This document shows positions 39,890 through 64,000 of a stretch of DNA of 64,000 nt, one piece after another. Made by a program: the position numbers and the translations under genes. The stretch's first letter is position 1. Every line of letters starts with the position of its first letter. The notes below the pieces were generated by a model. The model was not told the DNA's origin and ran no database searches. It saw nothing but the letters and a program-made list of their open reading frames with translations. The stretch lies in the NCBI RefSeq assembly GCF_058153355.1, contig NZ_CM177019.1, one strand, 5' to 3'.

Positions 39890-41202
<1,313 letters not shown>

Positions 41203-41410
41203 CATGCCTGCAATCTGGGAAACCGGGGTAGAAAAAAACTTGCAGGCCATAACAGTATCTACGTTCAGATTTGGTCGGTGCCAGAGGATTACTCGCCACT
41301 GCGTGGCTCGCCCTGCGGGCCGTTGCTGACGCAACGTTCTCTCGCTTTGCTCGAGTCGAACCTCTCTGCCCCCGGAGGTTCTTATCCTCTTCAGGTCGCA
41401 GAAAGCAAAA

Positions 41411-43622: not shown

Positions 43623-44831
43623 TTAAAGGGAGCCATGCGCCTCACGCAACATTTTCTGCTCTGGCTGGCGAATCGTCGTAGAAAGCGCCAGTGACAGAAT
43701 CAGCAGGGCGAAAATCACGTAGAATGTCACATAGAATCCGCCAAACAGTGAAGCGATAATCGAACCACAAATGCTGCCGATACCGAAACCGAGGTAAATC
43801 ACACCGTAGTTTTTTGCCAGATTATTTAGGCCGAAGAACTCACTGACCAGTGACGGGAACACAGTGATAGTGCCGCCGAAGTTAAATGCCACGCAGGCAA
43901 TCGCTGCAAAGAACGTCACTGCATTCAATGGGGCAAACAGCAGGGCCGCCATGCCCACCAGCGAAATGACCTGACCAATGGTGATAACACGGATACGGGC
44001 GATTTTGTCAGACAGAATGCCCAGCACCAGACGACCAGAAAGGTTGGCGATGGAAATAACCGTCACAGCATTGGCTGCGGAAATTGCATCAAGATGCGCC
44101 AGACTTTGAGCGATATCTTTCGCCACGCCAATCACATACAGGCCACTCATGCAGGCGGTCAGGAACATAACTGCTAACATCCAGTACTGCGGTTTACGCA
44201 TCGACTCTGCCAGCGTGTAATCCTTCTCCACCACGCCATTGCTGGTTTTCACTTCCTGCTTCGGCGCATCTTTCATTAATGTTGCGCCAAAGACAATCAT
44301 CACCAGTACAATCGCGCCCCAAATAACAAAGGTTTTTTCCAGACCGACCGTTTCCAACAGTTGCGTATCGATAAATTTGAAACCCAGACTACCAAGTCCA
44401 TAAGAACCAATAGCGAACGCAGAGATGAGTCCCTTACGCTCCGGGAACCACTTCACGCAGTTAGAGAGCGTCAACAGGTAACCCGCACCATCCGCCAGAC
44501 CAACCAACACACCGGCGCTTAACCACAGCATCATCAGGTTGTTGGAATGTGCTGTCAGGAAGAAACCTAATCCCAGCAAAATGCCGGAAGCCATAGTGAC
44601 GCGTTTAACACCAAAACGTTCTTGCAATTTGCCCGCAACAGAAGACGAAATTGCCAGCCCCAGACTTAACAAGCCGAAAGAGAAAGCAACCTGGCTTACC
44701 GGAGCCCCCAGCTTGGCAGAAAGCGCGCCGTTAAACAGACTCCAGGTATAAACCGACCCCAGGGCAAACTGGGTAATGATAGTACCGATGAGTGTCAGCC
44801 AGCGAGTACGCTGATAATTTGAAGGTGTCAT
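43623..44831 (-). CDS. yhjX: MFS transporter (oxalate/formate antiporter-like)
   Basis: ORF 43623..44876; start set at MTPSNYQRTRW (402 aa). Confidence 0.85.
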   Translation of the reverse strand: MTPSNYQRTRWLTLIGTIITQFALGSVYTWSLFNGALSAKLGAPVSQVAFSFGLLSLGLAISSSVAGKLQERFGVKRVTMASGILLGLGFFLTAHSNNLMMLWLSAGVLVGLADGAGYLLTLSNCVKWFPERKGLISAFAIGSYGLGSLGFKFIDTQLLETVGLEKTFVIWGAIVLVMIVFGATLMKDAPKQEVKTSNGVVEKDYTLAESMRKPQYWMLAVMFLTACMSGLYVIGVAKDIAQSLAHLDAISAANAVTVISIANLSGRLVLGILSDKIARIRVITIGQVISLVGMAALLFAPLNAVTFFAAIACVAFNFGGTITVFPSLVSEFFGLNNLAKNYGVIYLGFGIGSICGSIIASLFGGFYVTFYVIFALLILSLALSTTIRQPEQKMLREAHGSL

Positions 44832-45059
44832 GGCAGTATTCCTGCAGTAATAAAAAGGAAAAATCTCTGCTGACAACCATAACGAAGTGCACTTTATGCC
44901 TGGGGAAAAACGGCATGAAATGCCATCAGAACGGAATGAAATGCATTAGTTCAGGAATGAATGACTCGACGATTATTCATCAAATTTATTATTTAGTAAG
45001 TTAGTCCCCACTATCGCCACATTAGTTGTTATTTATGGGTTTCAATTGTATCTATAACG

Positions 45060-45765
45060 TTAAAATCTGGCACTAACCCCCATCGTATACAGATAGTCGC
45101 TATTGTTAGTGGTATTTTCTGCCTGAGATAGCGCCGCATAGGCGGCAATATTTTGATTGAGCAACATATCAGCGCCTAAGGTGACATCCAGCCAGTTGCC
45201 GTTCTGGTTTGTCGCCGTCATCCGGCTTAAGCCTGATTGCGCCTTCCAGATATTCTCGCCAAATTGCTGGTTATAGCTGATTTGCGCCCAGGGTCGGAGA
45301 TCGCCAAGCCGGGAGTCAACACGCCAGCCTAAGGTACTCACACTGGCATGCCATAACGGATCAGTCAGTGTAGTAGTACTGTCGCCAAACTCGTTATACA
45401 TCGAGGTGGTTGTACCATCGTAATGTAATGCCGCGACCGGGCCGGTTGTAACCTGTTCATATAAAGGAAAATTCCAGCCCATACTCATACTGCTGGTCAC
45501 ATCCACAGGGGTTTCTTCCGCCAGATTGACTTCCAGTCCCAGCGCCCTTTGGCTACTTTGAATACGTTGCGACAGAATATCTGTTGTAATCAGGTTGATG
45601 ATCGCTATCCCAGGTGTAGCGCTCTGTGGAATGTCCGGGTTGCGTATCAACGATATATTCTTGTTGCCAGGCGTAAGCTGTGTTGAGAAAAAAGGCACTG
45701 ATTACCACGCTCGCCAGCAGGCTTAACTGCCAGCGACCACCGCTTTTTTTTATGATCATTAACAC
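45060..45765 (-). pseudogene. yhjY: Autotransporter beta-domain-like protein YhjY, apparently frameshifted
   Basis: Two overlapping minus-strand ORFs (45553..45765 with signal peptide; 45060..45698) in different frames; frame change near 45590..45610. Confidence 0.5.
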
Positions 45766-45916
45766 GACTCCAGGGAAGAGCCGAATTCGGCAATATTATT
45801 GTCATTGTATGAAGGATATCGGGCATAGTAGCCCTGTATTAAATATTGACTTTTTCACCGATGCGTCAAGAAAAGGGGCTGAAATTTTTACGATCGGGTA
45901 CATAGCGAGGGAAAGT

Positions 45917-46480
45917 ATGGAACGTTGCGGCTGGGTGAGTCAGGACCCGCTTTATATTGCCTACCATGATAATGAGTGGGGCGTGCCTGAAACTGACAGT
46001 AAAAAACTGTTCGAAATGATCTGCCTTGAAGGGCAACAAGCAGGGTTATCGTGGATCACCGTCCTCAAAAAACGCGAAAACTATCGCGCCTGCTTTCATC
46101 AGTTCGATCCGGTGAAGGTGGCTGCAATGCAGGAAGAGGATGTCGAAAGACTGGTACAGGACGCCGGGATTATCCGCCATCGCGGGAAAATTCAGGCAAT
46201 TATTGGTAATGCGCGGGCGTACCTGCAAATGGAACAGAACGGCGAACCGTTTGCCGACTTTGTTTGGTCGTTTGTCAATCATCAACCACAGGTGACACAA
46301 GCCACAACGTTGAGCGAAATCCCTACATCTACGCCCGCCTCCGACGCTCTATCTAAAGCCCTGAAAAAGCGTGGTTTTAAGTTTGTTGGTACCACAATCT
46401 GTTACTCCTTTATGCAGGCATGTGGGCTGGTGAATGATCATGTGGTTGGCTGCTGTTGCTATCCGGGAAATAAACCATGA
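45917..46480 (+). CDS. tag: 3-methyladenine DNA glycosylase I
   Basis: ORF 45680..46480; start set at MERCGWVSQDPLY (187 aa). Confidence 0.85.
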   Translation: MERCGWVSQDPLYIAYHDNEWGVPETDSKKLFEMICLEGQQAGLSWITVLKKRENYRACFHQFDPVKVAAMQEEDVERLVQDAGIIRHRGKIQAIIGNARAYLQMEQNGEPFADFVWSFVNHQPQVTQATTLSEIPTSTPASDALSKALKKRGFKFVGTTICYSFMQACGLVNDHVVGCCCYPGNKP

Positions 46481-46917
46481 TTCGGGAAGCGCAACGTTCA
46501 GAACTCCCCGCGATCCTCGAATTGTGGCTGGAAAGTACAACCTGGGGGCATCCCTTTATAAAAGCGAATTACTGGCGTGATTGCATTCCGCTGGTGCGGG
46601 ATGCCTATCTTGCCAACGCGCAAAACTGGGTCTGGGAAGAAGACGGTAAGCTTCTCGGTTTTGTCAGCATTATGGAAGGCCGATTTCTGGCTGCAATGTT
46701 TGTCGCACCGAAGGCCGTCAGACGCGGTATTGGTAAGGCGCTAATGCAGTATGTGCAGCAGCGCCATCCCCATCTGATGCTGGAGGTTTATCAAAAAAAT
46801 CAACCGGCGATAGATTTTTACCATGCGCAGGGTTTTCACATTGTCGACTGCGCATGGCAGGATGAAACCCAACTACCCACCTGGATTATGAGCTGGCCGG
46901 TGGTTCAAACGCTGTAA
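46477..46917 (+). CDS. yiaC: GNAT-family N-acetyltransferase
   Basis: 146-aa ORF overlapping tag stop by 4 nt. Confidence 0.8.
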
Positions 46918-49219
46918 GTGTCAGTTCCGGACCGTTGTATTTTTCCAGCCATGCCAGCGCCGTATTACCCGCACAGCCATTCCCCAGCCGCGAGCTGGGG
47001 AGATCTTTGGTCAGAACGTTCACCGCGCCGTTTTTACAAATACCGTCAGCGGTTAAATCCAGATCCGGCCATGCCCCTTCATGAATGCAAATCACGCCAG
47101 GTTTAATTCCCTCGCTAATGACCGCTCCGGCAAGAATTTGCCCGCGTGCGTTCCACAACCGAACAATATCGCCATCTTGTATGCCGCGCGCCTGGGCATC
47201 GTCAGGATGAATGGTGACAGGCTCACGATTTGCCACCGCGTACAATTCGCGCAGAGAACTGTAATTCAGCTGGCTGTGCAGACGATGTGCCGGATGAGCA
47301 GAAAGTACCTGCAACTGTTCCGGTTCGGCATTGCCCTGCCATTCGTCCGGCTCCAGCCACATTGGATGCCCAGGGCAATCCGGATAAGCGTAATCGGCAA
47401 TACGCTGCGAGAAGATTTCAATCTTGCCGCTGGCGGTTTTTAATGGATGCGCCTGCGGATCGCGGCGAAAATCAGCGAAGCGAATAAACCGCTCACTGTC
47501 CGGGTTTTCCGGCATCTCAATTAACTGGTTGGCCTGCCAGAATTCAGCAAAAGGCGGCAATTCAACCCGCTGGCTTGTCCCACGTTGCCGGGCGACGTTA
47601 TAAAACGTTTCCAGCCATTGCAGCTCACTTTTCCCTTCCGTAAACCGCGCATAGCCGCCCTTCTCCCAACGTTCACTCAACTCGGCAAAGACATCAAAAT
47701 CATTACGCGCTTCATAACGTGGAGGCACCACTTGCTTCATCGGCATCAGATGCTGATTACTGTAATCGCCGGTCATGGTGAGGTCATTACGCTCAAACGA
47801 GGTGGTTGCAGGGAGGACGATATCGGCGTGTTTCGCCGCTGCCGTCCAGAAGCATTCGGAGATCACCACCAGCTCCGGTTTTTGCCAGGCACGAATCAGA
47901 CGATTGGTATCCTGATGATGAGTAAAGTTGGCGCCGCCCGCCCACCAGATAAAACGAATATCCGGGAAGTGACGATTCATGCCATTGTGTTGGTATGCAC
48001 CGCCAGGGTTTTCCAGAGCTTCAACAATACGGGCTACAGGGATTTTATCTACCGCATCGGTGCCACCTGGCAAGCTGCCCTGCATAGATGAAAGCACCGC
48101 AGCGCGGCGCGTAGGGTTACCACCATTGGCAAAATGGTAAGAAAGACCAAAGCCCCCGCCAGGCGTGCCGATTTGCCCTAACATTGCTGCCAGGGTGACG
48201 ATCATCCAGTGTTTTTGCTCACCAAACTGCTGGCGCTGCATTCCCCAGCCAGCCATCAGCATGGTGGTATTTTGGTGAAAAATAGCCGCCAGTTCGCGGA
48301 TTTTCTCTGCGTTAATCCCACAAATCTCTGCCGCCCATTCGGCATTTTTCGCTATTCCGTCACTCTCGCCCAGCAAATAAGAGGCGAAGACGTCATAACC
48401 TGTGGTGCAACGCGCCAGAAACGCTTCGTCGTGCCAGCCATTTTCCACCAGCGTATGGGCGATCCCCAGCATCAGCGCAACATCGGTGCCCATGTGCGGT
48501 GCCACCCACTCCATTTTATCGCCAAAGAAATCGACGGTTTCCGATCGCATTGGATCAATGCAGATCAGCTTTTTCCCGCTGTCACGCAGTGCGGAAAAGT
48601 AAGAAAGCCCCTGCTCATCGGATGCATTCCACGCAATTTTCAGCGTATTGAGTGGGTTAGCACTCCATAGCACCACGACATCGCTATGTTCCAATACCAA
48701 CGGCCAACTGGTTTGCTGTTGATAAACTTCGCTGCCCCCCACGACATACGGCATGATCGCCTGTGCTGCACCGGTCGAATAATCCCCCAGATGCCCAGTA
48801 TAACCGCCTGCCAGCGCCATATAGCGTTGTAATAATGTCGAGGCCTTATGCAGCACGCCGTTTGAACGCCAGCCGTAGGAACCAGCAAAAATCGATGCCG
48901 GACCATAAGCCTCACGAATACGTTTATGTTGTTGGTGAATAAGCTCCAGCGCCTCATCCCAACTCACGCGAACAAATTCATCCTGCCCACGAATGCCTTG
49001 CGGGTTTTCCGGTGACGCGAGAAAGCCCTTGCGCACCATTGGAAATCGTACCCGTGTTTTGCTGTGAACCTGGTCGCGAACCGCACTCTGCAAGGAGTTT
49101 TTCATTTCTGTGACTAACGCGCCACGCGAGCTAAACACGGTTTCGCCGTCGGTTTCAACCAGCATGGGCCCCCAGTGAGCGGCAGTAAGAACAGAATAAC
49201 GTGAGGATGAGTTGGCCAA
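46886..49219 (-). CDS. bisC: Biotin sulfoxide reductase (molybdopterin oxidoreductase)
   Basis: 777-aa ORF, DMSO-reductase family. Confidence 0.9.
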
Positions 49220-49371
49220 ACCGAAGGCTCCTGAAAGATTAGATGTATTGAGCAGTTAAATATTACTTACAAATTTCCGAGTATTCCCAGGAATAATCTT
49301 CATGTTCACGCGGCATAATCTCCCGCCACGGAACCCGTGGCAAAGAATAAAAAGGTTATTAAGGATTAACA

Positions 49372-50031
49372 ATGAAGAAACGTGTTTATCTTATTGCCGC
49401 CGTAGTGAGTGGCGCTCTGGCGGTATCTGGCTGCACCACTAACCCTTACACAGGTGAACGCGAAGCAGGTAAATCTGCTATCGGTGCAGGTCTGGGCTCT
49501 CTCGTTGGCGCGGGTATTGGTGCGCTCTCTTCTTCGAAGAAAGATCGCGGTAAAGGCGCGCTGATTGGCGCAGCAGCGGGTGCAGCTCTGGGCGGCGGCG
49601 TTGGTTATTACATGGATGTGCAGGAAGCGAAGCTACGTGACAAAATGCGCGGCACTGGTGTTAGCGTAACCCGCAGCGGGGATAACATTATCCTCAATAT
49701 GCCGAACAATGTAACCTTCGACAGCAGCAGCGCGACCCTGAAACCGGCAGGCGCTAACACCCTAACCGGCGTGGCAATGGTGCTGAAAGAGTATCCGAAA
49801 ACGGCGGTTAACGTGATTGGTTATACCGACAGCACGGGTGGTCACGACCTGAACATGCGTCTCTCCCAGCAGCGTGCGGATTCCGTTGCCAGCGCGTTGA
49901 TCACCCAGGGCGTGGACGCCAGCCGCATCCGTACTCAGGGCCTTGGCCCGGCTAACCCAATCGCCAGCAACAGCACCGCAGAAGGTAAGGCGCAAAACCG
50001 CCGTGTAGAAATTACCTTAAGCCCGCTGTAA
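49372..50031 (+). CDS. yiaD: OmpA-family outer-membrane lipoprotein
   Basis: 219-aa ORF; lipobox LAVSGC; Gly-rich segment; C-terminal OmpA-like domain. Confidence 0.8.
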   Translation: MKKRVYLIAAVVSGALAVSGCTTNPYTGEREAGKSAIGAGLGSLVGAGIGALSSSKKDRGKGALIGAAAGAALGGGVGYYMDVQEAKLRDKMRGTGVSVTRSGDNIILNMPNNVTFDSSSATLKPAGANTLTGVAMVLKEYPKTAVNVIGYTDSTGGHDLNMRLSQQRADSVASALITQGVDASRIRTQGLGPANPIASNSTAEGKAQNRRVEITLSPL

Positions 50032-50134
50032 TCCCTTTCATGCCAGGTGATGCAAAAATCACCTGGCATTCTTCAGTTTTCCTTCATCATATTTCAGGCT
50101 AAGGTGATCGCCTTATCAGTGAATGGAGAGAAGA

Positions 50135-51109
50135 ATGAAGCCGTCCGTTATCCTCTACAAAGCCTTACCTGATGATTTACTGCAACGCCTGCAAGAGCAT
50201 TTCACCGTTCATCAGGTGGCAAACCTCAGCACACAAACCGTCGAACAAAATGCAGCAATTTTTGCCGAAGCTGAAGGTTTACTGGGTTCAAACGAGAATG
50301 TTGATGCCGCATTGCTGGAAAAAATGCCGAAACTGCGTGCCACATCAACGATCTCCGTCGGCTATGACAATTTTGATGTCGATGCGCTTACCGCCCGAAA
50401 AATTCTGCTGATGCACACACCAACCGTATTAACAGAAACCGTCGCCGATACGCTGATGGCGCTGGTGTTGTCTACCGCTCGTCGGGTTGTGGAGGTAGCA
50501 GAACGGGTAAAAGCAGGCGAATGGACCGCGAGCATAGGCCCGGACTGGTACGGCACTGACGTTCACCATAAAACACTGGGCATTGTCGGGATGGGACGGA
50601 TCGGCATGGCGCTGGCACAACGTGCGCACCTTGGCTTCAACATGCCCATCCTCTATAACGCGCGCCGCCACCATAAAGAAGCAGAAGAACGCTTCAACGC
50701 CCGCTACTGCGATTTGGATACACTGTTACAAGAGTCAGATTTCGTTTGCCTGATCCTGCCGTTAACTGATGAAACGCATCATCTGTTTAGCGCAGAACAA
50801 TTCGCCAAAATGAAATCCTCCGCCATTTTCATTAATGCCGGACGTGGTCCAGTGGTTGACGAAAATGCACTGATTGCAGCATTGCAGAAAGGGGAAATTC
50901 ACGCTGCCGGGCTGGATGTATTCGAACAAGAGCCACTGCCCGTAGATTCTCCGTTGCTCTCAATGGCCAACGTCGTCGCCGTACCGCATATTGGTTCTGC
51001 CACCCATGAGACGCGTTATGGCATGGCCGCCTGCGCCGTGGATAATTTGATTAATGCGTTACAGGGAAAAGTTGAGAAGAACTGTGTGAATCCGCACGTC
51101 GCGGAATAA
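50135..51109 (+). CDS. ghrB: Glyoxylate/hydroxypyruvate reductase B
   Basis: ORF 50123..51109; start at MKPSVILYK (324 aa); D-2-hydroxyacid dehydrogenase family with GxGxxG. Confidence 0.85.
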
Positions 51110-51127
51110 CCGCGACTGCGGGAAGTA

Positions 51128-51153
51128 AAGCCCGATAATCGCCCGGGCTTTTA
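51128..51153. terminator. Candidate bidirectional terminator between ghrB and yiaF
   Basis: Hairpin AAGCCCG...CGGGCTT flanked by A/T runs between convergent genes. Confidence 0.4.
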
Positions 51154-51157
51154 CTCT

Positions 51158-51868
51158 TTATTGGGTTGCAGTGACTGCTGTAGTCCAGGCCTGATTAAAC
51201 GCCTGATGCTGTGCCGGTAATGGCGCAATCAGTTTGTTATATTCACTTGCCTGCTGCGAAGTCGGGAACTGGATGCCATTTGCGACAAAACTCACCTGAG
51301 TACCTTGCTGAGCAATGTAGTCTCCAACCATCACCAGTTGTTGCGTGAAAGTTTGTGCCGCCGGAATCAACGGTTGCAAAGCATCAGCTGGCGTCGTTAC
51401 CACTTTGGTGAATGCCTGATCAAAGACCGGTTTCAGGTCATCGCTCTGTTTTAGCGCAGAGTGCGCAGCATCGGCCTGCAACTTCGCATTTTGCAACTGT
51501 TGCGCCAGTACGCCCAGAGAACCGTTCATTTCACGCAGTGGGCCGCTTTGCGTAACGTAATCCTGCGGTACGCGAATTGCGTTAACGCTGTCTACAACCG
51601 GGCGCAGACCGGAATCCATCGCCTGATTCACCTGCTGTGAATAACCATACAGAATCGCGTAATCAGAGACAAAAGGACCAAACTGTTTTTTCTGATCGGC
51701 AGTCAGGGTTGGTAGACGTTCACCGCTACGCATCACTGTATTCTGCAGGAAGTCGATAAACGCTTTACGCTGATCGCCTTCTTTATCAAAACACCCACTC
51801 AGGCTAACTACCATTAATAACGCCGCAAGAGGCGCAAACCAGCGAGAGCAGGACTTTCCTGTCGCCAT
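51158..51868 (-). CDS. yiaF: Lipoprotein YiaF
   Basis: ORF 51158..51988; start set at MATGKSCSRWFAPLAALLMVVSLSGC (236 aa) with lipobox. Confidence 0.75.
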   Translation of the reverse strand: MATGKSCSRWFAPLAALLMVVSLSGCFDKEGDQRKAFIDFLQNTVMRSGERLPTLTADQKKQFGPFVSDYAILYGYSQQVNQAMDSGLRPVVDSVNAIRVPQDYVTQSGPLREMNGSLGVLAQQLQNAKLQADAAHSALKQSDDLKPVFDQAFTKVVTTPADALQPLIPAAQTFTQQLVMVGDYIAQQGTQVSFVANGIQFPTSQQASEYNKLIAPLPAQHQAFNQAWTTAVTATQ

Positions 51869-52301
51869 TTTCTTACTCCTTTCACCCAAAAAAAGCGCAC
51901 AACGACACACGCGTGTCTGACGTGACAAGGATAGTCCAGGACAGGCTTGCAGGATACCCTTTCTACGTAATCTTCCTGGTAAAATCATGGAGAAAATGAA
52001 ACAAGGTTAATTTGTTGTTTCATTGTTAAAAAATGATAGTGCCGTTGCTTTTTTTGTAGCCAGAGATTTACGCCTTCTCAGAACGTTAGATTTTCGAAAT
52101 CTTTACAAACCGGGAGTGGTAAGAGATATATCGGCATTTATCAGATCGTTAGGTGGCTATAAGTCACGCTAAATGACTGGCTGAATCGAATCATAGCCAG
52201 AGCATGCCCTGACTACACCCCGCTGTGTCTGTTTTTCCCGACTATTCTTAATGAGCTTCGATGCAATTCACGATCCCGCAGTGTGATTTGAGGAGTTTTC
52301 A

Positions 52302-52592
52302 ATGGAATATAAAGATCCCATGCATGAGCTGTTGAGCAGCCTGGAACAGATTGTTTTTAAAGATGAAACGCAGAAGATTACTCTGACGCATAGAACAACG
52401 TCCTGTACCGAGATTGAGCAGTTACGTAAAGGTACGGGGTTAAAAATCGATGATTTCGCTCGGGTTTTGGGCGTTTCCGTCGCCATGGTAAAGGAATGGG
52501 AATCCCGACGCGTTAAGCCTTCAAGTGCCGAACTAAAATTGATGCGTCTGATTCAAGCTAACCCAGCGTTAAGTAAGCAGTTGATGGAATAG
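52302..52592 (+). CDS. yiaG: HTH-type (Cro/C1-like) small regulator
   Basis: 96-aa ORF. Confidence 0.7.
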   Translation: MEYKDPMHELLSSLEQIVFKDETQKITLTHRTTSCTEIEQLRKGTGLKIDDFARVLGVSVAMVKEWESRRVKPSSAELKLMRLIQANPALSKQLME

Positions 52593-52712
52593 ACTTTTAT
52601 CCACTTTATTGCTGTTTACGGTCCTGATGACAGGACCGTTTTCCAACCGATTAATCATAAATATGAAAAATAATTGTTGCATCACCCGCCAATGCGTGGC
52701 TTAATGCACATC

Positions 52713-52872
52713 AACGGTTTGACGTACAGACCATTAAAGCAGTGTAGTAAGGCAAGTCCCTTCAAGAGTTATCGTTGATACCCCTCGTAGTGCATTTCCT
52801 TTAACGCTTCAAAATCTGTAAAGCACGCCATATCGCCGAAAGGCACATTTAAATTATTAAAGGTAATACACT
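52713..52872 (+). promoter_or_regulatory. cspA long 5' leader (cold-responsive regulatory region)
   Basis: About 160 nt of non-coding leader before the cspA start; role inferred from known cspA biology. Confidence 0.5.
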
Positions 52873-53085
52873 ATGTCCGGTAAAATGACTGGTATCGTAA
52901 AATGGTTCAACGCTGACAAAGGCTTCGGCTTCATCACTCCTGACGATGGCTCTAAAGACGTGTTCGTACACTTCTCTGCTATCCAGAACGATGGTTACAA
53001 ATCTCTGGACGAAGGTCAGAAAGTGTCCTTCACCATCGAAAGCGGCGCTAAAGGCCCAGCAGCTGGTAACGTAACCAGCCTGTAA
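52873..53085 (+). CDS. cspA: Major cold-shock protein CspA
   Basis: 70-aa [40 protein letters not shown]... with RNP1/RNP2 motifs. Confidence 0.95.
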
Positions 53086-53112
53086 TCTCTGCTTAAAAGC
53101 ACAGAATCTAAG

Positions 53113-53142
53113 ATCCCTGCCAAATGGCGGGGATTTTTTTAT
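53113..53142 (+). terminator. Rho-independent terminator of cspA
   Basis: Hairpin ATCCCTGCC/GGCGGGGAT followed by TTTTTTT. Confidence 0.6.
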
Positions 53143-53273
53143 TTGTTTATTCAGGAAATGAATAATCGTTCGCGTAATAAAATCTATTATTATTTTTGTG
53201 AAGAATAAATTTGGGTGCAATGAGAATGCGCAACGCCGTAAGAAAGGCGGGAATAACTTCCCGCCGAAGACTC

Positions 53274-53426
53274 TTACTCTTTCAATTTGCAGGCTAAAAA
53301 CGCCGCCAGCTCATAATTCTCCTGTTTAATATGCAATTCACACAGTGAATCTCTTATCATCCAGGTGAAAAATAAAAGCGTGAAACAAATCACTATTAAA
53401 GAAAGTAATCTATATTTCTGCGGCAT
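53274..53426 (-). CDS. hokA: Hok-family type I toxin HokA
   Basis: 50-aa ORF MPQKYRLLSLIVICFTLLFFTWMIRDSLCELHIKQENYELAAFLACKLKE. Confidence 0.75.
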   Translation of the reverse strand: MPQKYRLLSLIVICFTLLFFTWMIRDSLCELHIKQENYELAAFLACKLKE

Positions 53427-53486
53427 TCCCAGCCTCCTGTGTTGATTTCCAACGAGTAAGAGGCTAACCTTATGGTGTTCAGGCAT
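53274..53486 (-). CDS. mokA: Overlapping leader reading frame MokA ending at the hokA stop
   Basis: 70-aa ORF containing the hokA frame; called by analogy with hok/mok/sok loci. Confidence 0.5.
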   Translation of the reverse strand: MPEHHKVSLLLVGNQHRRLGMPQKYRLLSLIVICFTLLFFTWMIRDSLCELHIKQENYELAAFLACKLKE

Positions 53487-53704
53487 AGGGTAGCCTCACT
53501 TTGATTTATAGTCAGGTGGGGCTTTTCTCTGTCTGCCTTTCGGTGAATACCTGAGACAAACAGTCTCAAGCACCCGTGGCTATTCTAGCTTAATAAGTTC
53601 TTTTCTTCTCCTTGATATAATCCTAAAAAAATCTCATAAAATTAATATATGAGACAATCTTTATTCAGCAGAAGATTATTAAAGGTTGCTCTATTATTTA
53701 GCGA

Positions 53705-53735
53705 TAAAAAAGCCTGCCAGATGGCAGGCTTTTTA
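53705..53735. terminator. Bidirectional terminator downstream of glyS
   Basis: Hairpin AGCCTGCCAGATGGCAGGCT flanked by AAAAAA and TTTT. Confidence 0.5.
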
Positions 53736-53747
53736 ATAACGACGTTA

Positions 53748-55817
53748 TTACTGCAACAGCGAAATATCCGCAACTCGCAGGAATAATTCGCGCAGTTTCT
53801 CCAGCATGGTAAGACGGTTGATTCGCAATTCTTTGTCATCAACCATGACCATCACTTTATCGAAGAAGGCATCAACCGGTTCACGCAGCTCAGCCAGTTC
53901 GACCAGCGCATCCTGGTAACGACCTTCAGCAAAGTACGGCTCTAGCTTGTCACGTAGCACCACAACCTGCATCGCCAGTTTAATTTCTTCCGGCTCTTTC
54001 AGAGTAGAGGCATTCACGCGGTCGCTCAGCACTTCGTCAGATTTCGCCAGAATGTTAGATACACGCTTGTTCGCCGCCGCCAGTGCTGCAGCTGCATCCA
54101 GGGTACGGAAGTGCGATACCGCTTTCATTCGGGCATCGAAATCAGCCGGACGAGTCGGACGACGCGCCAGTACCGCCTGGATGGTGTCAACGGTGTAACC
54201 TTCGTCCTGATACCAGGCGCGGAAGCGACCGAGCATAAAGTCGATAACATCATCAACCACGTTGGCATTAGTCAGCTTATCGCCATACAGACGCACTGCT
54301 TCTTCGGTCAGGGTTTGCAGGTCAAGATTGAGGTTCTTCTCAACGATAATACGCAGCACGCCAAGTGCGGCACGACGCAACGCAAACGGGTCTTTGTCGC
54401 CTTTCGGATGCTGGCCGATACCGAAGATACCCGCCAGAGTATCCATCTTGTCAGCTATCGCCAGCGCACAGGCTACCGGGTTAGACGGCAGGTCATCACC
54501 GGCAAAGCGCGGCTGATACTGCTCGTTCAGCGCCACTGCGACATCTTCCGCTTCACCATCGTGACGCGCGTAGTGCATACCCATAACGCCCTGAGTGTCG
54601 GTGAACTCGAAGACCATGTTAGTCATCAGGTCACACTTAGACAGCAGGCCCGCACGGGTGGCATGATTCACGTCAGCGCCAATCTGTTCAGCAATCCAGC
54701 CAGCCAGCGCCTGAATGCGGTCAGTTTTGTCGCGCAGCGTACCCAGTTGTTGCTGGAACAGCACGGTTTGCAGGCGCGGCAGGTTATCTTCCAGACGTTT
54801 TTTACGGTCGGTATTGAAGAAGAACTCGGCATCCGCCAGACGTGGACGAACGACTTTCTCGTTACCAGAGATAATTTGCTGCGGATCTTTCGATTCGATA
54901 TTGGCAACGAAGATAAAGTTCGGCAGCAGTTTGCCGTCGTTCGCATACACCGGGAAGTATTTCTGGTCACCTTTCATGGTGTAAACCAGCGCTTCAGACG
55001 GCACCGCGAGGAATTTCTCTTCGAATTTTGCGGTCAGCACAACCGGCCATTCCACCAGCGAAGCGACTTCTTCCAACAGGCTTTCGCTTAAGTCAGCGTT
55101 ACCGCCAATCTTACGCGCCGCTTCTTCGGCATCGGCTTTAATCTTCGCCTTACGTTCTTCGTAATCGGCGATGACTTTCCCGCGCTCACGCAGAATTTCC
55201 GGATACTGATCAGCATTGTCGATAGTGAATTCCGGCTCGCCCATAAAGCGGTGGCCGCGAATCACGCGATCGGACTGAATGCCCAGAATGGTTGCCGGAA
55301 TGACTTTGTCGCCCAGCAGCAGGGTCACGGTGTGCACCGGACGCACGAAGTGCACGTCGCTTGCACCCCAACGCATCAGTTTCGGGATCGGCAGTTTCGC
55401 CAGCGAAGTCGCAACCATATTCGGCAACAGTGCTTCAGTGCTTTCGCCCTTCACGTGGGCGCGATACAGCAGCCATTCGCCTTTATCGGTAGTCAGACGC
55501 TCAGCCTGGTCAACGGTAATACCGCAACCACGCGCCCAGCCTTCTGCCGCTTTGCTCGGTTTGCCTTCAGCGTCGAACGCCTGGGCAATCGCCGGGCCGC
55601 GTTTTTCGATTTCACGATCCGGTTGTGCTTCCGCCAGGTTAGCTACTTTCAGCGCCAGACGACGCGGAGCAGCAAACCATTGAACGGTGCCATGTGCGAG
55701 GCCAGCGTTATCCAGCTCCGCAGTAAAGTTCGCAGCAAAGGACTCAGCCAGGCTGCGCAGTGCTTTTGGTGGCAGCTCTTCAGTGCCGATTTCCACCAGA
55801 AAAGTTTTCTCAGACAT
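53748..55817 (-). CDS. glyS: Glycine--tRNA ligase beta subunit
   Basis: 689-aa ORF. Confidence 0.95.
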
Positions 55818-55826
55818 AGCCGCCTC

Positions 55827-56738
55827 TTACTTATCTTTGTTGCACATCGGGAAGCCGAGGGCTTCACGGGAAGCGTAGTATGCTTCTGCCACTGCTTTGG
55901 TCAGGGTGCGAATGCGCAGAATATAGCGCTGACGCTCAGTGACGGAGATGGCTTTACGCGCATCCAGCAGGTTGAAGCTGTGGGCGGCTTTCAGAATACG
56001 CTCGTAGGCTGGCAGCGGCAGCGGATTTTCCAGCGCCAGCAGCTGCTGCGCTTCTTTCTCGTATTGCTCGAAGCAGGTGAACAGGAAGTCCACATCCGCG
56101 TATTCGAAGTTGTAAGTGGACTGCTCCACTTCGTTCTGATGGAACACGTCGCCGTAGGTGGTTTTACCCAGCGGGCCGTCGCTCCAGACCAGGTCGTAAA
56201 CGCTGTCTACGCCCTGAATGTACATTGCCAGACGTTCCAGACCGTAGGTGATCTCGCCGGTAACCGGTTTACACTCCAGACCACCAACCTGCTGGAAGTA
56301 AGTGAACTGCGTCACTTCCATGCCGTTCAGCCACACTTCCCAGCCCAGCCCCCAGGCACCCAAAGTCGGGTTTTCCCAGTTATCTTCCACGAAACGGATA
56401 TCGTGGATAGTCGGGTCCATGCCCAGCTCTTTCAGAGAACCAAGGTACAGCTCCTGAATATTGTCCGGCGATGGCTTAATGACCACCTGGAACTGATAGT
56501 AGTGCTGTAAACGGTTGGGGTTTTCGCCGTAGCGACCATCGGTCGGGCGACGAGAAGGCTGAACATAAGCAGCCGCCATCGGTTCTGGCCCCAGCGCGCG
56601 CAGACAGGTCATTGGGTGAGAGGTTCCCGCGCCGACTTCCATGTCCAATGGTTGAACAATGGTGCAGCCCTGGCGAGCCCAGTAATCCTGTAAGGTCAGG
56701 ATCAAGCCCTGGAAGGTCCTGGTATCAAACTTTTGCAT
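55827..56738 (-). CDS. glyQ: Glycine--tRNA ligase alpha subunit
   Basis: 303-aa ORF. Confidence 0.95.
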
Positions 56739-56832
56739 ATTATTTCGTGCTGGATACGTGTGGATTTAAAGGAAGGGATCAGTATACCCGCTGGATGGAA
56801 GATATACAGTACGAAACGGGAAAAAGCAGGGC

Positions 56833-57141
56833 TTAACGCATGGAAAGATGCAAAAAATGGCCATCCGCGTCAAAAGAACAGACAAACTGCTCTTTCCGGA
56901 AGGTATAACCACGCATTTCGTAGCTTCCCTGGAACTGTTCGAAGGCGGTGACGTCGATTTTTTGCTCGCCGGTGTTATAACGTTTTGCCGCCTGATCCTT
57001 GCATAACGCTTCCATATTCAACGAACGCAGAGGATCAACCTTTACCCGTTGTGCTTTCTGCACGGGTGGCGGTGTAGAACAACCCACTAGCGCCATAAGC
57101 ACTATAAGCGCCATTGCCGGAAAGAAAGAGTTCATCATCAT
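56833..57141 (-). CDS. ysaB: Small lipoprotein YsaB
   Basis: About 100-aa ORF with signal peptide and lipobox LVGC; exact start uncertain. Confidence 0.6.
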   Translation of the reverse strand: MMMNSFFPAMALIVLMALVGCSTPPPVQKAQRVKVDPLRSLNMEALCKDQAAKRYNTGEQKIDVTAFEQFQGSYEMRGYTFRKEQFVCSFDADGHFLHLSMR

Positions 57142-57315
57142 TAAATTACCGTCTGGTTTGCAGGTGAGTCTTATTATTTATATCGGTATAGTGGCTGATA
57201 TCTTACGAATTTCCTTAAGCCTCTATAAGCTGTAGTGATAAAACTCAGATTATTCCAGTGCGCCAACCGAATGATTTATCGGTCAGACTTTTTTTAACCA
57301 GATACAGAGACACAG

Positions 57316-58311
57316 ATGCAGCCCAAAATTTACTGGATTGATAACCTGCGAGGGATAGCGTGTTTAATGGTGGTGATGATTCACACCACAACCTGGTATG
57401 TGACCAATGCTCATAGTGTTAGCCCCGCTACCTGGGATATCGCCAATGTTCTGAATTCTGCCTCTCGTGTCAGCGTGCCGCTATTTTTCATGATTTCCGG
57501 CTATCTCTTTTTTGGCGAACGCAGCGCCCAGCCGCGCCATTTCTTACGTATCGGCTTATGTCTGCTTTTTTATAGCGCAATCGCACTGCTCTACATTGCG
57601 CTGCTTACCTCCATCAATGTGGAGTTAGCGCTGAAAAACCTGCTGCAAAAGCCAGTGTTTTACCACTTATGGTTTTTCTTCGCGATTGCGGTGATTTATC
57701 TGGTTTCACCGCTGATTCAGGTGAAGAACGTTGGCGGAAAAATGTTGCTGGTACTAATGGTGGTGATTGGTATTATCGCTAACCCAAACACAGTGCCGCA
57801 GAAAATTGACGGTTTTGAATGGCTGCCAATTAACTTATATATCAATGGCGATACTTTTTACTACATCCTGTATGGCATGTTGGGCCGCGCTATAGGGATG
57901 ATGGACACACAGCATAAAGCACTGTCGTGGGTGTGCGCCGCACTGTTTGCGACGGGGGTTTTTATTATCTCTCGCGGGACATTATATGAATTGCAGTGGC
58001 GCGGAAATTTTGCCGATACCTGGTATCTTTACTGTGGGCCGATGGTTTTTATCTGCGCAATCGCACTATTGACTCTGGTTAAAAATACGCTGGATACACA
58101 CACTGTTCCCGGGCTTGGGCTGATATCACGCCATTCTTTAGGTATATACGGGTTCCACGCATTGATTATCCATGCGCTGCGTACCCGGGGGATTGAGCTT
58201 AAAAACTGGCCAATACTGGATATTATTTGGATCTTTTGCGCGACGTTGGCAGCGAGTTTGTTACTTTCTATGCTGGTACAACGAATCGACAGAAACAGAC
58301 TAGTGAGTTAA
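57316..58311 (+). CDS. wecH: Membrane O-acetyltransferase (acyltransferase 3 family)
   Basis: 331-aa polytopic ORF. Confidence 0.85.
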
Positions 58312-58314
58312 ATA

Positions 58315-58345
58315 AAAGCCCGGTCACATTGGACTGACCGGGCTT
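58315..58345. terminator. Candidate bidirectional terminator between wecH and yiaA
   Basis: Hairpin AAAGCCCGGTCA...TGACCGGGCTT between convergent genes. Confidence 0.4.
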
Positions 58346-58352
58346 ATGTGAA

Positions 58353-58811
58353 TTATTCGCTGTATTCTTCCTGGGTAACCTGTGTTTCTTTTGGTGGGTT
58401 TATTCCGGCATCACGAATATTCTTCTGCACCGCTACTGCACCAAACAAGCTTAAGAAGAAAGCCAGTCCATAAAAACCTTTCTCGCTGAGTAATAACGTC
58501 GCATTCCACAGACCTACCATCAGTAACGCAACAGAGATAATAAAGACAGTCAGGCAGGTCATATAATAAATGGAGGTGGTCGGTATGCCTTCATACTTGT
58601 CCCGAACGGTCTTTTGATAAGATGCCGCAGAAAACAGTCCTAGCACCAGCACGGCAAAATAATATCCTTTTTCATTTAACTGCATCTCTGCATTCCATAG
58701 CCCTAACAGATAGGTAACGATACCACCAACAAGAGCTATCCATGACACAATACTAAATGCCGGAGAATAGGTTGATATTTTGGTAAGCGTCTTATCAGGA
58801 CCGTCTGGCAA
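58353..58811 (-). CDS. yiaA: Inner membrane protein YiaA with 5' end replaced by an IS terminus (chimeric start)
   Basis: ORF reads [10 protein letters not shown] from inside the IS66-family end (58783..58811) into [14 protein letters not shown]...; native start codons MDNKI lie 2.47 kb away at 61253..61267. Confidence 0.65.
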
Positions 58812-58857
58812 ATTCCCGATGCTTTGGACAAAGTATCCACCACTAAATTAATAGTGG

Positions 58858-59286
58858 GTGATAAAAATGTCAGATATACAAAAAAATGCCTCTCCGGGAA
58901 GGCCTAAAGGGTGCCTGAATTATCCTCCTGAATTCAAACAACGACTCATAGAAGCATCATTCCAGCCAGGTGTTTCAATTTCCAGACTGGCCCTGGACAA
59001 TGGTATTAATGCCAATCTGTTGTTCAAATGGCGTCAGAAATGGCGGCAGGGGAAGATAAAATTGCCATCATCAGAATCAGGCAGAGAATCTCAGTTAATT
59101 CCTGTCACTATTGATGCCCAACTCCCAACTGCTCCGGCTAATGAGCCACTGACCGCAAGACCGTCAGTAACACCGGAAATACACAGCATCTCCTGTGAGA
59201 TTACGTTCAGAAACGGCACCCTTCGGTTGAACGGGGCAGTGAATGAAAATCTGCTGTCCTTGCTTATACAGGAGCTGAGACGGTGA
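58858..59286 (+). CDS. IS66-family accessory protein (orfA/TnpA-like)
   Basis: 142-aa ORF; stop overlaps next ORF start (ATGA-type coupling). Confidence 0.75.
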   Translation: MIKMSDIQKNASPGRPKGCLNYPPEFKQRLIEASFQPGVSISRLALDNGINANLLFKWRQKWRQGKIKLPSSESGRESQLIPVTIDAQLPTAPANEPLTARPSVTPEIHSISCEITFRNGTLRLNGAVNENLLSLLIQELRR

Positions 59287-59630
59287 TATCTCTCCCTGCA
59301 GGTTCGCGTATCTGGCTGGTTGCAGGTATCACCGATATGCGAAATGGCTTTAACGGCCTGGCCTCAAAAGTTCAGAACGTCCTGAAGGATGACCCGTTCT
59401 CCGGGCATCTGTTCATCTTCCGCGGACGCCGGGGTGACCAGATAAAAGTGTTGTGGGCTGACAGTGACGGACTGTGCCTCTTCACCAGACGCCTGGAGCG
59501 GGGCCGCTTCGTCTGGCCGGTCACCCGTGACGGCAAGGTGCACCTTACTCCGGCCCAGTTATCCATGCTTCTTGAGGGCATCGACTGGAAACACCCGAAA
59601 CGAACGGAACGCGCTGGCATCCGCATATAA
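59283..59630 (+). CDS. IS66-family accessory protein (orfB/TnpB-like)
   Basis: 115-aa ORF MISLPAGSRIWLVAGITDMRNGFNGLA..., characteristic IS66 orf2. Confidence 0.8.
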   Translation: MISLPAGSRIWLVAGITDMRNGFNGLASKVQNVLKDDPFSGHLFIFRGRRGDQIKVLWADSDGLCLFTRRLERGRFVWPVTRDGKVHLTPAQLSMLLEGIDWKHPKRTERAGIRI

Positions 59631-59649
59631 CCCGTTGTAAAGTGAGGAT

Positions 59650-61221
59650 ATGGACACCTCACTTGCTCATGAGAATGCCCGCCTGCGGGCACTGTTGCAG
59701 ACGCAACAGGACACCATCCGCCAGATGGCGAAATACAACCGCCTGCTCTCACAGCGGGTGGCGGCTTATGCTTCCGAAATCAACCGGCTGAAGGCGCTGG
59801 TTGCAAAACTGCAGCGCATGCAGTTCGGTAAAAGCTCAGAAAAACTTCGTGCAAAAACCGAACGGCAGATACAGGAAGCACAGGAGCGAATCAGCGCTCT
59901 TCAGGAAGAAATGGCGGAAACGCTGGGTGAGCAATATGACCCGGTACTGCCATCTCCCCTGCGCCAGTCTTCAGCCCGTAAACCGTTACCTGCCTCACTT
60001 CCCCGTGAAACCCGGGTCATCCGTCCGGAAGAGGAATGCTGCCCGGCCTGTGGTGGCGAACTCAGTTCTCTGGGATGTGATGTGTCAGAGCAACTGGAGC
60101 TTATCAGCAGCGCCTTTAAGGTTATCGAAACACAACGTCCGAAACTGGCCTGTTGCCGGTGCGACCATATCGTGCAGGCTCCGGTGCCTTCAAAACCCAT
60201 TGCACGCAGTTATGCCGGAGCGGGGCTTCTGGCCCATGTTGTCGCTGGAAAATATGCAGACCATCTGCCGTTATACCGCCAGTCAGAAATATACCGTCGT
60301 CAGGGCGTGGAGCTGAGCCGTGCCACACTGGGGCGCTGGACAGGTGCTGTTGCTGAACTGCTGGAACCGCTGTATGACATCCTGCGCCAGTATGTGCTGA
60401 TGCCCGGTAAAGTCCATGCCGATGATATCCCCGTTCCGGTCCAGGAGCCGGGCAGCGGTAAAACAAGGACTGCCCGGCTGTGGGTCTACGTTCGTGATGA
60501 CCGTAACGCCGGTTCGGAAATGCCTCCGGCGGTCTGGTTCGCGTACAGCCCGGACCGGAAAGGTATCCATCCACAGAATCATCTGGCCGGTTACAGCGGA
60601 GTGCTTCAGGCCGATGCTTACGGTGGTTACCGGGCGTTGTACGAATCCGGCAGAATAACGGAAGCCGCATGTATGGCTCATGCCCGGAGAAAAATCCACG
60701 ATGTGCATGCAAGAGTGCCCACCGACATCACCACGGAAGCCCTGCAGCGTATCGGTGAACTGTATGCCATCGAGGCAGAGGTCCGGGGCTGTTCAGCAGA
60801 ACAGCGTCTGGCGGCAAGAAAAGCCAGAGCCGCGCCACTGATGCAGTCACTGTATGACTGGATACAGCAACAGATGAAAACACTGTCGCGTCACTCGGAC
60901 ACGGCAAAAGCGTTCGCATACCTGCTGAAACAGTGGGATGCACTGAACGTGTACTGCAGTAATGGCTGGGTGGAAATCGACAACAACATCGCAGAGAACG
61001 CCTTACGGGGAGTGGCCGTAGGCCGGAAAAACTGGCTCTTCGCGGGTTCTGACAGCGGTGGTGAACATGCTGCGGTGTTGTACTCGCTGATCGGCACATG
61101 CCGTCTGAACAATGTGGAGCCAGAAAAGTGGCTGCGTTACGTCATTGAACATATCCAGGACTGGCCGGCAAACCGGGTACGCGATCTGTTGCCCTGGAAA
61201 GTTGATCTGAGCTCTCAGTAA
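59650..61221 (+). CDS. IS66-family transposase (TnpC)
   Basis: 523-aa ORF with N-terminal leucine-zipper-like region, CxxC pairs and DDE-type core. Confidence 0.85.
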
Positions 61222-61312
61222 ATATCAATACGGTTCTGGCGAGCCGCTTACATATTTTGTTGTCCATCACAGTATTCCTTTCATTCCTGAATGTGTAAGA
61301 GCTTTATGTTGC

Positions 61313-61654
61313 TCATGCCGGGCGAAACAAACGCATTTGACCAAACAAGCAGACAAAAAAGGCGATAGGGTAGATCACCATTTCATAAGCATTGATAGGT
61401 GCGTTTAAAACACCGATAAACAAGAGACCGATAGTGATTAACGCAACTAACTGGCAGATGTGAATAAAAAAATCATCCAGTTGCCCGAGTTTTTCTGCGC
61501 GAAGATATGCATAGTTGCTAAAAGTTGCCGTCATTAACACGCCAAGAAAATAGCCTTTTCCACTTAACAATGGGCATGAGATCCATAGCCCAAGCAGATA
61601 AACCAGCGCCCCGACAACAAATAATAGTTTTGCCACAGTCTTTGAGGTTTTCAT
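61313..61654 (-). CDS. yiaB: Inner membrane protein YiaB (yiaA paralogue)
   Basis: ORF 61313..61696; start set at MKTSKTVAKLLF (113 aa). Confidence 0.75.
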   Translation of the reverse strand: MKTSKTVAKLLFVVGALVYLLGLWISCPLLSGKGYFLGVLMTATFSNYAYLRAEKLGQLDDFFIHICQLVALITIGLLFIGVLNAPINAYEMVIYPIAFFVCLFGQMRLFRPA

Positions 61655-61821
61655 AACGATCTCCATATCTACCAGCGATACATTACGAGTAACCAACGAA
61701 AGACAAAACTGAAAAATGCCATTAACAAATGATTTCAGAATAAATTCATACTAAATATTAATTAATTACTGATATATATAGATGTGAATTATCCCCCACC
61801 CGGTCAGGCAGGGGATAACGT

Positions 61822-63276
61822 TTACGCCATTAATGGCAGAAGTTGCTGATAGAGGCGACGGAACGTTTCACGTCGTGGCTGATAAGTGGCATAACGCTGC
61901 GCATCTGGTAAATGCGACTGTTCTAACGGCAGTTGTGGCAACAACTCAATGAGCGATTTCTCTGGATTCGCCACAATCTGCGCCAGCCTTGCTGCGCCCA
62001 GTGCTGGCCCCACATCCCCCCCCGTGCGGTAATCGAGTTGCTGACCGCTGATATCCGCCAGCATCTGACGCCAGTACTCACTACGCGCCCCGCCACCAAT
62101 CAACGTAACACTTTGCGGTTTAATGCCGCAGGCATGCACGACATCCATGCCATCTGCCAGCGCATAACCCACGCCTTCCAGCACTGCTCGCGCCAGTTCA
62201 TTGGGGCCATGTTGATGAGTCAAACCAAAGAAAACCCCCTTCGCCTGGGGATTATTGTGTGGTGTACGCTCGCCGGAAAGATAAGGCAGAAACCAAACTG
62301 GCTCGGCACTTTCATCAGCCTGTTGAGCAGCCGCGATTAAAGCTGGGACATTGTTCAGGCCCGTTAATTTCGCGGCCCAATCCAGACACGACGCTGCACT
62401 CAGCATCACAGACATTAAATGCCAACGCTGCGGGAGCGCATGGCAAAAGCTGTGTACGGCGCTTTCTGGCTTGCTTAAGAACCCTTCGCTGACAGCAAAA
62501 TAGACCCCCGACGTCCCCAGCGATAACATTGCCTGATTAGCATCAACCATTCCTACACCAACCGCACCAGCTGCATTATCACCACCGCCTGCGACAACTG
62601 GCACTGCCGCCATACCCCACGCTTTCGCAACTTCAGGTAGCAAAGCACCAGTAATTTCGCTGCCTTCGTATAATGCGGGCATCTGGTCACGAGATAAGTG
62701 GCAAGCCTGCAGCATGACGTCACTCCAGTCACGCTTTGCGACATCCAGCCACATGGTGCCAGCTGCGTCAGACATATCGCTGGCAAACTCCCCCGTCATA
62801 CGCAGACGCAAGTAATCTTTCGGTAATAATACTTTGTCGATTTGACGGAATATCTCCGGCTCATGCCGCTGAACCCATAGCAATTTAGGCGCAGTAAATC
62901 CGGGCATCATCAGGTTACCGGTAATCACCCGTGATTGCGGAACTCGCGCTTCCAGCAAAGTGCACTCTTGCGCACAGCGCCCGTCGTTCCACAAAATGGC
63001 AGGGCGTAATACCCGTTGCTGGGCATCCAGTAAGGTTGCACCGTGCATCTGGCCGGCAATACCCAATGCTTTAACGTCCTGCAGAGAATGCTGATCGCCC
63101 AGAGCTTTCATTGCGCGATCAGTTGCCTGCCACCACTGTTCCGGGTCTTGTTCCGACCAGAGTGGATGCGGGCGCGAAACGGTCAGCTTTTCCGTTTGCG
63201 AAGCAACCACCTCACCCTGCTCGTTGAGCAAAATAACTTTTACGCCCGAGGTGCCAAGATCTATCCCGATATACAT
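61822..63276 (-). CDS. xylB: Xylulokinase
   Basis: 484-aa ORF MYIGIDLGTSGVKVILL..., FGGY sugar-kinase family. Confidence 0.9.
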   Translation of the reverse strand: MYIGIDLGTSGVKVILLNEQGEVVASQTEKLTVSRPHPLWSEQDPEQWWQATDRAMKALGDQHSLQDVKALGIAGQMHGATLLDAQQRVLRPAILWNDGRCAQECTLLEARVPQSRVITGNLMMPGFTAPKLLWVQRHEPEIFRQIDKVLLPKDYLRLRMTGEFASDMSDAAGTMWLDVAKRDWSDVMLQACHLSRDQMPALYEGSEITGALLPEVAKAWGMAAVPVVAGGGDNAAGAVGVGMVDANQAMLSLGTSGVYFAVSEGFLSKPESAVHSFCHALPQRWHLMSVMLSAASCLDWAAKLTGLNNVPALIAAAQQADESAEPVWFLPYLSGERTPHNNPQAKGVFFGLTHQHGPNELARAVLEGVGYALADGMDVVHACGIKPQSVTLIGGGARSEYWRQMLADISGQQLDYRTGGDVGPALGAARLAQIVANPEKSLIELLPQLPLEQSHLPDAQRYATYQPRRETFRRLYQQLLPLMA

Positions 63277-63347
63277 ATCGATCGTTCCTTAAAAAAATGC
63301 CCGGTATCGCTACCGATAACCGGGCCAACGGACTGCACAGTTAGCCG

Positions 63348-64000
63348 TTATTTGTCGAACAGATAATGGTTTACCAGATTTTCCAGTTGCTCCTGGCGAC
63401 CACTCTGATGCACCGGAGACAAATTATGTTCCTGAGCATATTTGGCTAAATCTGCCAGTGACATTTGGCCTTTCAGGATTTGCTGGCCTAATTCGCTATT
63501 CCAGCCGGAATAACGCTGCGCGATGCGTTTATCCAGCTCGCCATCTTCAATCATGCGTGCTGCAATTTTCAGCGCCAACGCCATCGTATCCATCGCGCCG
63601 ATATGACCGTAAAACAGATCATATTTATCAGTACTTTGACGACGGACTTTGGCATCGAAGTTCAGACCGCCGGTGGTGAAACCGCCTGCTTTGAGAATTT
63701 CATACATCACCAGCGCATTCTCTTCCACACTGTTCGGGAACTGGTCGGTGTCCCAGCCCAGTTGTGCATCGCCACGGTTGGCGTCGACAGAACCGAACAG
63801 GCCAAGCGCAATGGCGGTGGCTATTTCATGATGGAAAGAGTGACCTGCCAGCGTCGCGTGGTTAGCTTCAATGTTCAGTTTAATCTCTTTTTCCAGACCA
63901 AACTGTTTCAGGAAGCCATACACCGTCGCGGCATCGTAATCATATTGATGTTTAGTCGGTTCTTGCGGTTTCGGTTCGATAAGCAACGTCCCCTGGAAAC
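63348..64000 (-). CDS. xylA: Xylose isomerase, C-terminal part only (start lies beyond the window)
   Basis: Minus-strand ORF open to the window edge; C-terminal xylose-isomerase sequence. Confidence 0.9.

Follow-up and report, generated by a model that had tools for sequence, protein, structure and literature searches.

The window analysed here, 64,000 nucleotides of contig NZ_CM177019.1 (NCBI RefSeq assembly GCF_058153355.1), carries an intact hokA toxin gene between glyS and cspA. hokA occupies 53274..53426 on the minus strand and encodes a 50-aa product, MPQKYRLLSLIVICFTLLFFTWMIRDSLCELHIKQENYELAAFLACKLKE. glyS (53748..55817, minus strand) lies upstream of it in the direction of transcription, with a terminator hairpin at about 53703-53735, and the interval between the glyS stop codon and the predicted 5' end of the hokA mRNA measures 172 nt. 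On the opposite side, cspA (52873..53085, plus strand) converges on hokA. The mokA frame (53274..53486, minus strand, 70 aa) is also intact. It is identical to the hokA frame, with 20 codons added N-terminally and a stop codon common to both; a GAGG motif and a 7-nt gap precede its ATG at 53486, and its 70 codons remain open through hokA.

An earlier note on this DNA, made from the letters alone, had already recognized the intact 50-aa Hok frame, and the family searches below bear it out. It had also described an overlapping 70-aa mok-like frame. This frame is indeed intact, but it is an in-frame extension of hokA rather than a separate frame. Similarly, glyS was rightly placed next to the toxin gene with no insertion in between, but it does not "follow" hokA, since it is located upstream on the same strand. 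Finally, the range then given, 53250-53650, contains hokA and mokA but is too short at its left edge: the hokA/sokA locus reaches to about 53213, with the fbi element at 53225-53213.

HokA belongs to a well-defined family, and the match is far above chance. The protein scores 129.5 bits with the NCBIfam HokA equivalog model NF007290 (cut-off 89) over residues 1-50 of 50, and it matches Pfam HOK_GEF (PF01848) with E = 2.4e-21. On the general Hok subfamily model, its score is 50.7 bits, below the cut-off of 73, and in this it differs from the plasmid R1 system. The N-terminal hydrophobic helix LLSLIVICFTLLFFTWMI and two cysteines, Cys29 and Cys46, are encoded in the DNA; both cysteines are described as hard-coded in HokA (bioRxiv 10.1101/2025.08.07.668861). 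Records of the exact 50-aa protein, named HokA [Escherichia coli], come from at least 1000 contigs, and those of the exact 70-aa mokA product from 93 contigs. At the RNA level, Rfam RF01794 matches 53424-53575 on the minus strand with 124 bits (gathering score 59) and over model positions 1-157 of 157, that is, over 152 nt up to and including the hokA start codon. As this family is named "sok antitoxin", it might be taken to mark the strand of the antisense RNA. We rejected this reading because the 157-nt model begins at the 5' end of the hok mRNA and ends on the hokA AUG; RF01794 thus describes the sense leader of hok.

The elements of the locus were placed by RNA folding and by aligning its minus strand to two references, the locus of E. 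coli C and a plasmid hok/sok locus of the R1 type. The earlier note, which could not position the antisense RNA and the fold-back elements by eye, had proposed the alignment with R1, and the sok promoter, tac and fbi all find their place in it. The features are the following.

53582..53587, minus strand: putative -10 box of the hokA promoter, TAGAAT, placed by homology 6 nt 5' of the predicted mRNA +1.
53213..53575, minus strand: predicted hokA mRNA, 363 nt, from the probable +1 (GGGUGCUUGAG..., GGGUGC) to the end of fbi; RF01794 starts at its model position 1 at 53575.
53564..53575, minus strand: tac (translational activator), GGGUGCUUGAGA, mRNA nt 1-12, aligned with R1 GGCGCUUGAGG.
53518..53524, minus strand: ucb (upstream complementary box, anti-SD), AAGCCCC, mRNA nt 52-58, of which AGCCCC is conserved with R1.
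53494..53497, minus strand: Shine-Dalgarno (SD) sequence of mokA, GAGG, 7 nt 5' of the mokA ATG; GAGGC is invariant with respect to R1.
53460..53465, minus strand: dcb (downstream complementary box), AGCCUC, the complement of GAGGCU in the mok SD region.
53433..53438, minus strand: SD sequence of hokA, AGGAGG, 6 nt 5' of the hokA ATG; AGGGGG in E. coli C, O157 and others.
53426 and 53274, minus strand: ATG start and TAA stop of hokA.
53246..53265, minus strand: 3' hairpin GGCGGGAA-GUUA-UUCCCGCC, followed by UUUCUU and flagged as terminator-like in the scan.
53213..53225, minus strand: fbi (fold-back inhibition), UCUCAUUGCACCC, mRNA nt 351-363, aligned with R1 fbi ...CUGAAGCGCC.
53442..53470, plus strand: putative sokA promoter, with -35 TTGATT at 53442-53447, a 17-nt spacer and -10 TAACCT at 53465-53470.
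About 53477..53532, plus strand: predicted SokA antisense RNA, about 53-56 nt.

The position of the hokA -10 box matches that of R1-type hok (TATGAT, 6 nt, GGCGC...). No convincing -35 box is found upstream of it, in DNA that is A/T-rich, and the hokA promoter is predicted to be weak. The sokA promoter shares its position and spacing with the Sok promoter as read in the R1-type sequence (TTGCGC, 17 nt, TATCCT), and it is invariant in all aligned uninterrupted E. coli loci. A scan for promoter and terminator consensus flagged neither of the two, the only promoter-like site being an unrelated one at 53720-53693; hence, both are placed by homology only.

The 5' end of SokA is positioned from that of the -10 box and is accordingly approximate. 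In the predicted RNA, the first 10 nt are single-stranded and complementary to the region of the mokA start codon; a hairpin and UUUUCUCU come next. Its fold has an energy of -18.7 kcal/mol (z = -3.75), and a U-rich tract comes after the hairpin. The annotation of a 35-nt sokA pseudogene in MG1655, equivalent to 53498-53532 in the window, is consistent with this 3' end. By analogy with R1, SokA would be expressed from this promoter. The earlier note had taken the loss or mutation of the sok promoter or of the mok start region as a sign of an inactive locus. Both regions are present here, with the mok SD and ATG, the -35 and -10 boxes of sokA and the SokA hairpin, and 53436-53600 is identical to the locus studied experimentally in E. 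coli C.

The hokA mRNA aligns end to end with R1-type hok. The block containing dcb, AGCCTCTTAC, is identical in R1-type hok, and the 3' hairpin aligns with the R1 hairpin GGCGGGC-GCAG-GCCCGCC. The 366-nt RNA from 53575 to 53210 is predicted to be highly structured, with a minimum free energy (MFE) of -138.6 kcal/mol and z = -8.0 as compared with dinucleotide shuffles. In both the MFE and the centroid folds, tac and fbi pair over 6 + 5 bp, 5' GGGUGC with 3' GCACCC and UGAGA with UCUCA, the 6-bp helix having a pair probability of about 1.0 in the full-length fold. In the same fold, the pairing of ucb with the mok SD has a probability of 0.92-0.99. Trimming of the RNA to the 3' hairpin shifts the pairing of tac to ucb (0.62) and lowers that of ucb with the SD to about 0.36; in this trimmed form, the SD/dcb pairing is weakly predicted (0.14-0.38). 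The two folds are thus predicted to reproduce the switch from a closed to an open form described for the R1 hok mRNA (PMC9841398). Because the hokA leader is almost invariant across E. coli alleles, E. fergusonii and Escherichia sp. E4930, the tac/fbi and ucb/SD helices carry no covariation support in hokA.

Overall, the order of the elements is common to R1 hok/sok (parB) and to hokA: tac, a metastable hairpin, ucb, the mok SD, dcb overlapping the Sok -10 box, then the hok SD, the Hok/Gef toxin, the 3' hairpin and fbi. The same switch between full-length and truncated RNAs is predicted for both (mechanism in PMC9841398). There are also clear differences. The hokA locus is chromosomal, its leader is some 20 nt shorter than that of R1, and mokA and hokA are read in one frame that ends at a common stop codon. 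In addition, the second terminator hairpin that R1 carries after fbi (AAAGGGGCUG...CAGCCCCUUU) has no counterpart at hokA, where the alignment shows a gap, and the sole other terminator-like site of the minus strand in the scan is the hairpin at 53265-53246, upstream of fbi. Hence, the 3' end of the full-length hokA RNA is not defined by the sequence, and transcripts may end at this hairpin before fbi is reached. Together with the weakly predicted SD/dcb pairing, this weakens the analogy with R1. The terminator after fbi is a feature of R1, not one that defines the family. Finally, post-segregational killing (PSK), the activity of the R1 system, is reported to be absent for hokA in the account given by bioRxiv 10.1101/2025.08.07.668861.

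By homology with R1, the module could work as follows. The hokA mRNA, made from a weak promoter (-10 TAGAAT), would be highly structured. As long as this RNA is full-length, the pairing of the 5' tac with the 3' fbi and the masking of the mokA ribosome binding site (RBS) by ucb would allow neither translation nor binding of SokA. Slow trimming of the 3' end to the GGCGGGAA/UUCCCGCC hairpin, which is expected to protect the 3' end of the processed mRNA, would then remove fbi. Once freed, tac would pair with ucb, making the mokA RBS and start codon accessible. SokA, a short and unstable RNA made from the opposite strand, would pair with the mokA start region and block the translation of mokA, hence that of hokA, and the SokA/mRNA duplex would be marked for RNase III. 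The 50-aa membrane toxin HokA would be made only upon loss of SokA. For the locus in the window, we infer by analogy the transcript ends, the processing, the expression of SokA and the toxicity of HokA.

The earlier note had stressed that no insertion element lies within the ORFs or their leader, and this holds. According to the ORF list and to an alignment with nine other E. coli loci, there is neither a transposase ORF nor extra DNA in the hokA-glyS interval, and the uninterrupted E. coli loci are collinear with the window. The closest reference for this arrangement is E. coli C, where hokA/sokA sits at the same place between cspA and glyS, also without an insertion sequence (IS). Pedersen and Gerdes (1999) used this strain to characterize the intact hokA/sokA locus, as cited in bioRxiv 10.1101/2025.08.07.668861 and PMC3562002. 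Its sequence is identical to that of the window over 53436-53600, a segment that comprises the mRNA 5' end, tac, ucb, the SD and ATG of mok, dcb, the sokA promoter and the SokA RNA. Inside the hokA mRNA, the two loci differ at eight positions. The hokA SD reads AGGAGG in the window and AGGGGG in E. coli C; HokA has E36, N37 and K47 in the window in place of G36, S37 and N47; and two differences are located in the 3'-UTR, between the 3' hairpin and fbi. One more difference, outside these eight, affects the promoter spacer at 53601, where the window has a private A and the nine other aligned E. coli loci have C.

In K-12, the situation is different. According to published work, the hok loci of K-12 have been inactivated by IS elements, point mutation or rearrangement, and hok loci free of IS elements are described in other strains. 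MG1655 hokA (b4455) has the same gene and 3' region as the window, N37S being the only difference in HokA, so that the window protein departs by this one residue from the allele tested for toxicity. However, MG1655 carries an IS150 element (1443 bp, 3720633-3722075) 32 nt upstream of the hokA ATG, between hokA and glyS, in agreement with the earlier note. On either side of IS150, mokA (b4647) and sokA (b4614) are annotated as pseudogenes. The K-12 type also lacks 39 bp, corresponding to 53459-53497 in the window, with the -10 box and 5' end of sokA and the ATG and SD of mokA. There is no target-site duplication at the K-12 IS150 junction.

We counted these alleles over 5426 complete E. coli genomes. 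The uninterrupted 661-bp cspA-glyS interval is present in 2830 genomes, so that the IS-free state is the commonest at hokA in E. coli. The K-12-type IS150 junction is found in 1663 genomes and a second type, named after strain p11B, in at most 1026, an upper bound since the sum of the three allele counts slightly exceeds the total. In p11B, IS150 is inserted in the opposite orientation to the K-12 type, with a duplication of CTT at 53499-53501. The right-hand junctions of the two types are only 1-2 bp apart, at 53497-53499 in the window. Judging from these junctions, at least two separate IS150 insertion events have affected the mok/sokA region. The proximity of the two junctions may reflect a hot spot, selection, or the derivation of one allele from the other. 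Precise excision of an IS was considered as the origin of the IS-free state in the window and was rejected, as 53499-53501 shows neither a CTT duplication nor any other scar; an ancestral state is the simpler reading.

Taken together, we are confident that the glyS-cspA interval of the window harbours hokA/mokA/sokA, a chromosomal type I toxin-antitoxin locus of Escherichia, in its uninterrupted and probably ancestral form, for which homology suggests an R1-like mechanism. This uninterrupted form is real but not new, as it was described in 1999. The K-12 reference thus carries a damaged hokA, whereas the window, like about half of E. coli, carries a complete toxin/antisense-RNA module. The coordinates given here can be used for annotating hokA, mokA, sokA and their RNA elements, and they may help in testing if the hok loci of chromosomes are silent or become active under certain conditions. 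On its own, the locus matters very little.

An intact structure is not evidence of activity. As reported in bioRxiv 10.1101/2025.08.07.668861, citing Pedersen and Gerdes (1999), the intact hokA locus of E. coli C shows neither post-segregational killing nor activation by rifampicin. Since the regulatory region of E. coli C is identical to that of the window, the most likely physiological state is that of a structurally complete module that is tightly repressed or silent.

Alternatively, the locus could be a fully active killer module, in which depletion of SokA, for instance upon transcription arrest, would lead to the synthesis of HokA and to membrane damage, as in R1. In favour of this, no cis element is missing and folding predicts the structural switch. 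The hokA SD, AGGAGG, is stronger than the AGGGGG of E. coli C, and the MG1655 HokA coding sequence is toxic when over-expressed (bioRxiv 10.1101/2025.08.07.668861). The IS150 knock-outs at mok/sokA in about half of E. coli, through at least two events, could also reflect selection against an active toxin. However, E. coli C, having the same leader and the same sokA, is reported to show neither killing nor rifampicin activation in the account cited above; furthermore, the predicted hokA promoter is weak and no defined terminator follows fbi. On balance, we consider a fully active module unlikely. A related idea is that intact hokA/sokA is active enough in natural strains to be costly, the window then representing the "live" state. 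IS150 knock-outs in about half of the genomes would correspond to selection for toxin loss, or else to a sequence-specific IS150 hot spot in sokA/mok. This proposal is speculative and, in our opinion, quite doubtful.

The preferred reading, a complete module that is repressed or silent, also has to be weighed against slow decay, and here the comparison with other Escherichia species is informative. The glyS-hokA-cspA arrangement is also found in E. fergusonii and in Escherichia sp. E4930. Between the window and either of these genomes, the hokA mRNA region is 96.4-97.0% identical, whereas the 3' end of glyS is 93.6-95.2% identical in the same genome pairs. That the hokA mRNA is better conserved than the adjacent essential gene argues for purifying selection or recent exchange, not for decay. 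That the locus is a relic, intact in looks only, untranscribed or encoding a non-toxic HokA and persisting by chance, is therefore very improbable, even if it has been suggested that hok loci on the chromosome are inactive (bioRxiv 10.1101/2025.08.07.668861) and no strong promoter consensus came out of the scan, because to this conservation are added a leader almost invariant up to the mok region and the integrity of the two ORFs, the two Cys residues and all paired elements.

Some observations concern the surroundings of the locus. In one E. fergusonii genome (GCA_017528585.1, L016 541-900), the glyS-hokA spacer is longer, only 72% identical to that of the window, and includes a called ORF of 119 aa; next to this different spacer, the hokA mRNA region is unchanged. 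The spacer of the window (53576-53747) is 99.4% identical to that of another E. fergusonii genome (L014) and 96.0% identical to that of E. coli C. Along its length, the window is about 95-97% identical to E. coli C, and over 44000-64000 the best complete E. coli genome is at most about 98.8% identical to it. These values suggest that the window comes from a rarely sampled lineage and/or contains a recombined patch.

An intact 23-codon ORF resembling ysaE is found at 53226..53297 on the plus strand, antisense to the last hokA codons, the 3' hairpin and the first base of fbi. MG1655 and other genomes have ysaE annotated at the corresponding place, and the ORF has no match in NCBIfam. It stands outside the toxin-antitoxin mechanism.

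Elsewhere in the window, three insertions are seen with respect to E. coli C. A 1.4-kb insertion at 1556-2981, between treF and yhjB, carries the gene for an IS4-family transposase of 448 aa (NF033592, 304 bits). Between dppA and tRNA-Pro/RtT, a 1.37-kb insertion (39981-41350) encodes a 326-aa transposase of the IS110 family (RNA-guided; NF033542, 253 bits) and adjoins a match to the REP-type naRNA4 at 39898-39979. The third is an IS66-family element of 2.47 kb, which E. coli C lacks; it is located between yiaB and xylB (58783-61251) and carries an accessory TnpA (58858-59286) and a 523-aa transposase (59650-61221). Finally, the window holds a second type I toxin-antitoxin locus, ldrD/rdlD, as indicated by the rdlD antisense RNA at 31759-31824 (Rfam RF01813, 90 bits).
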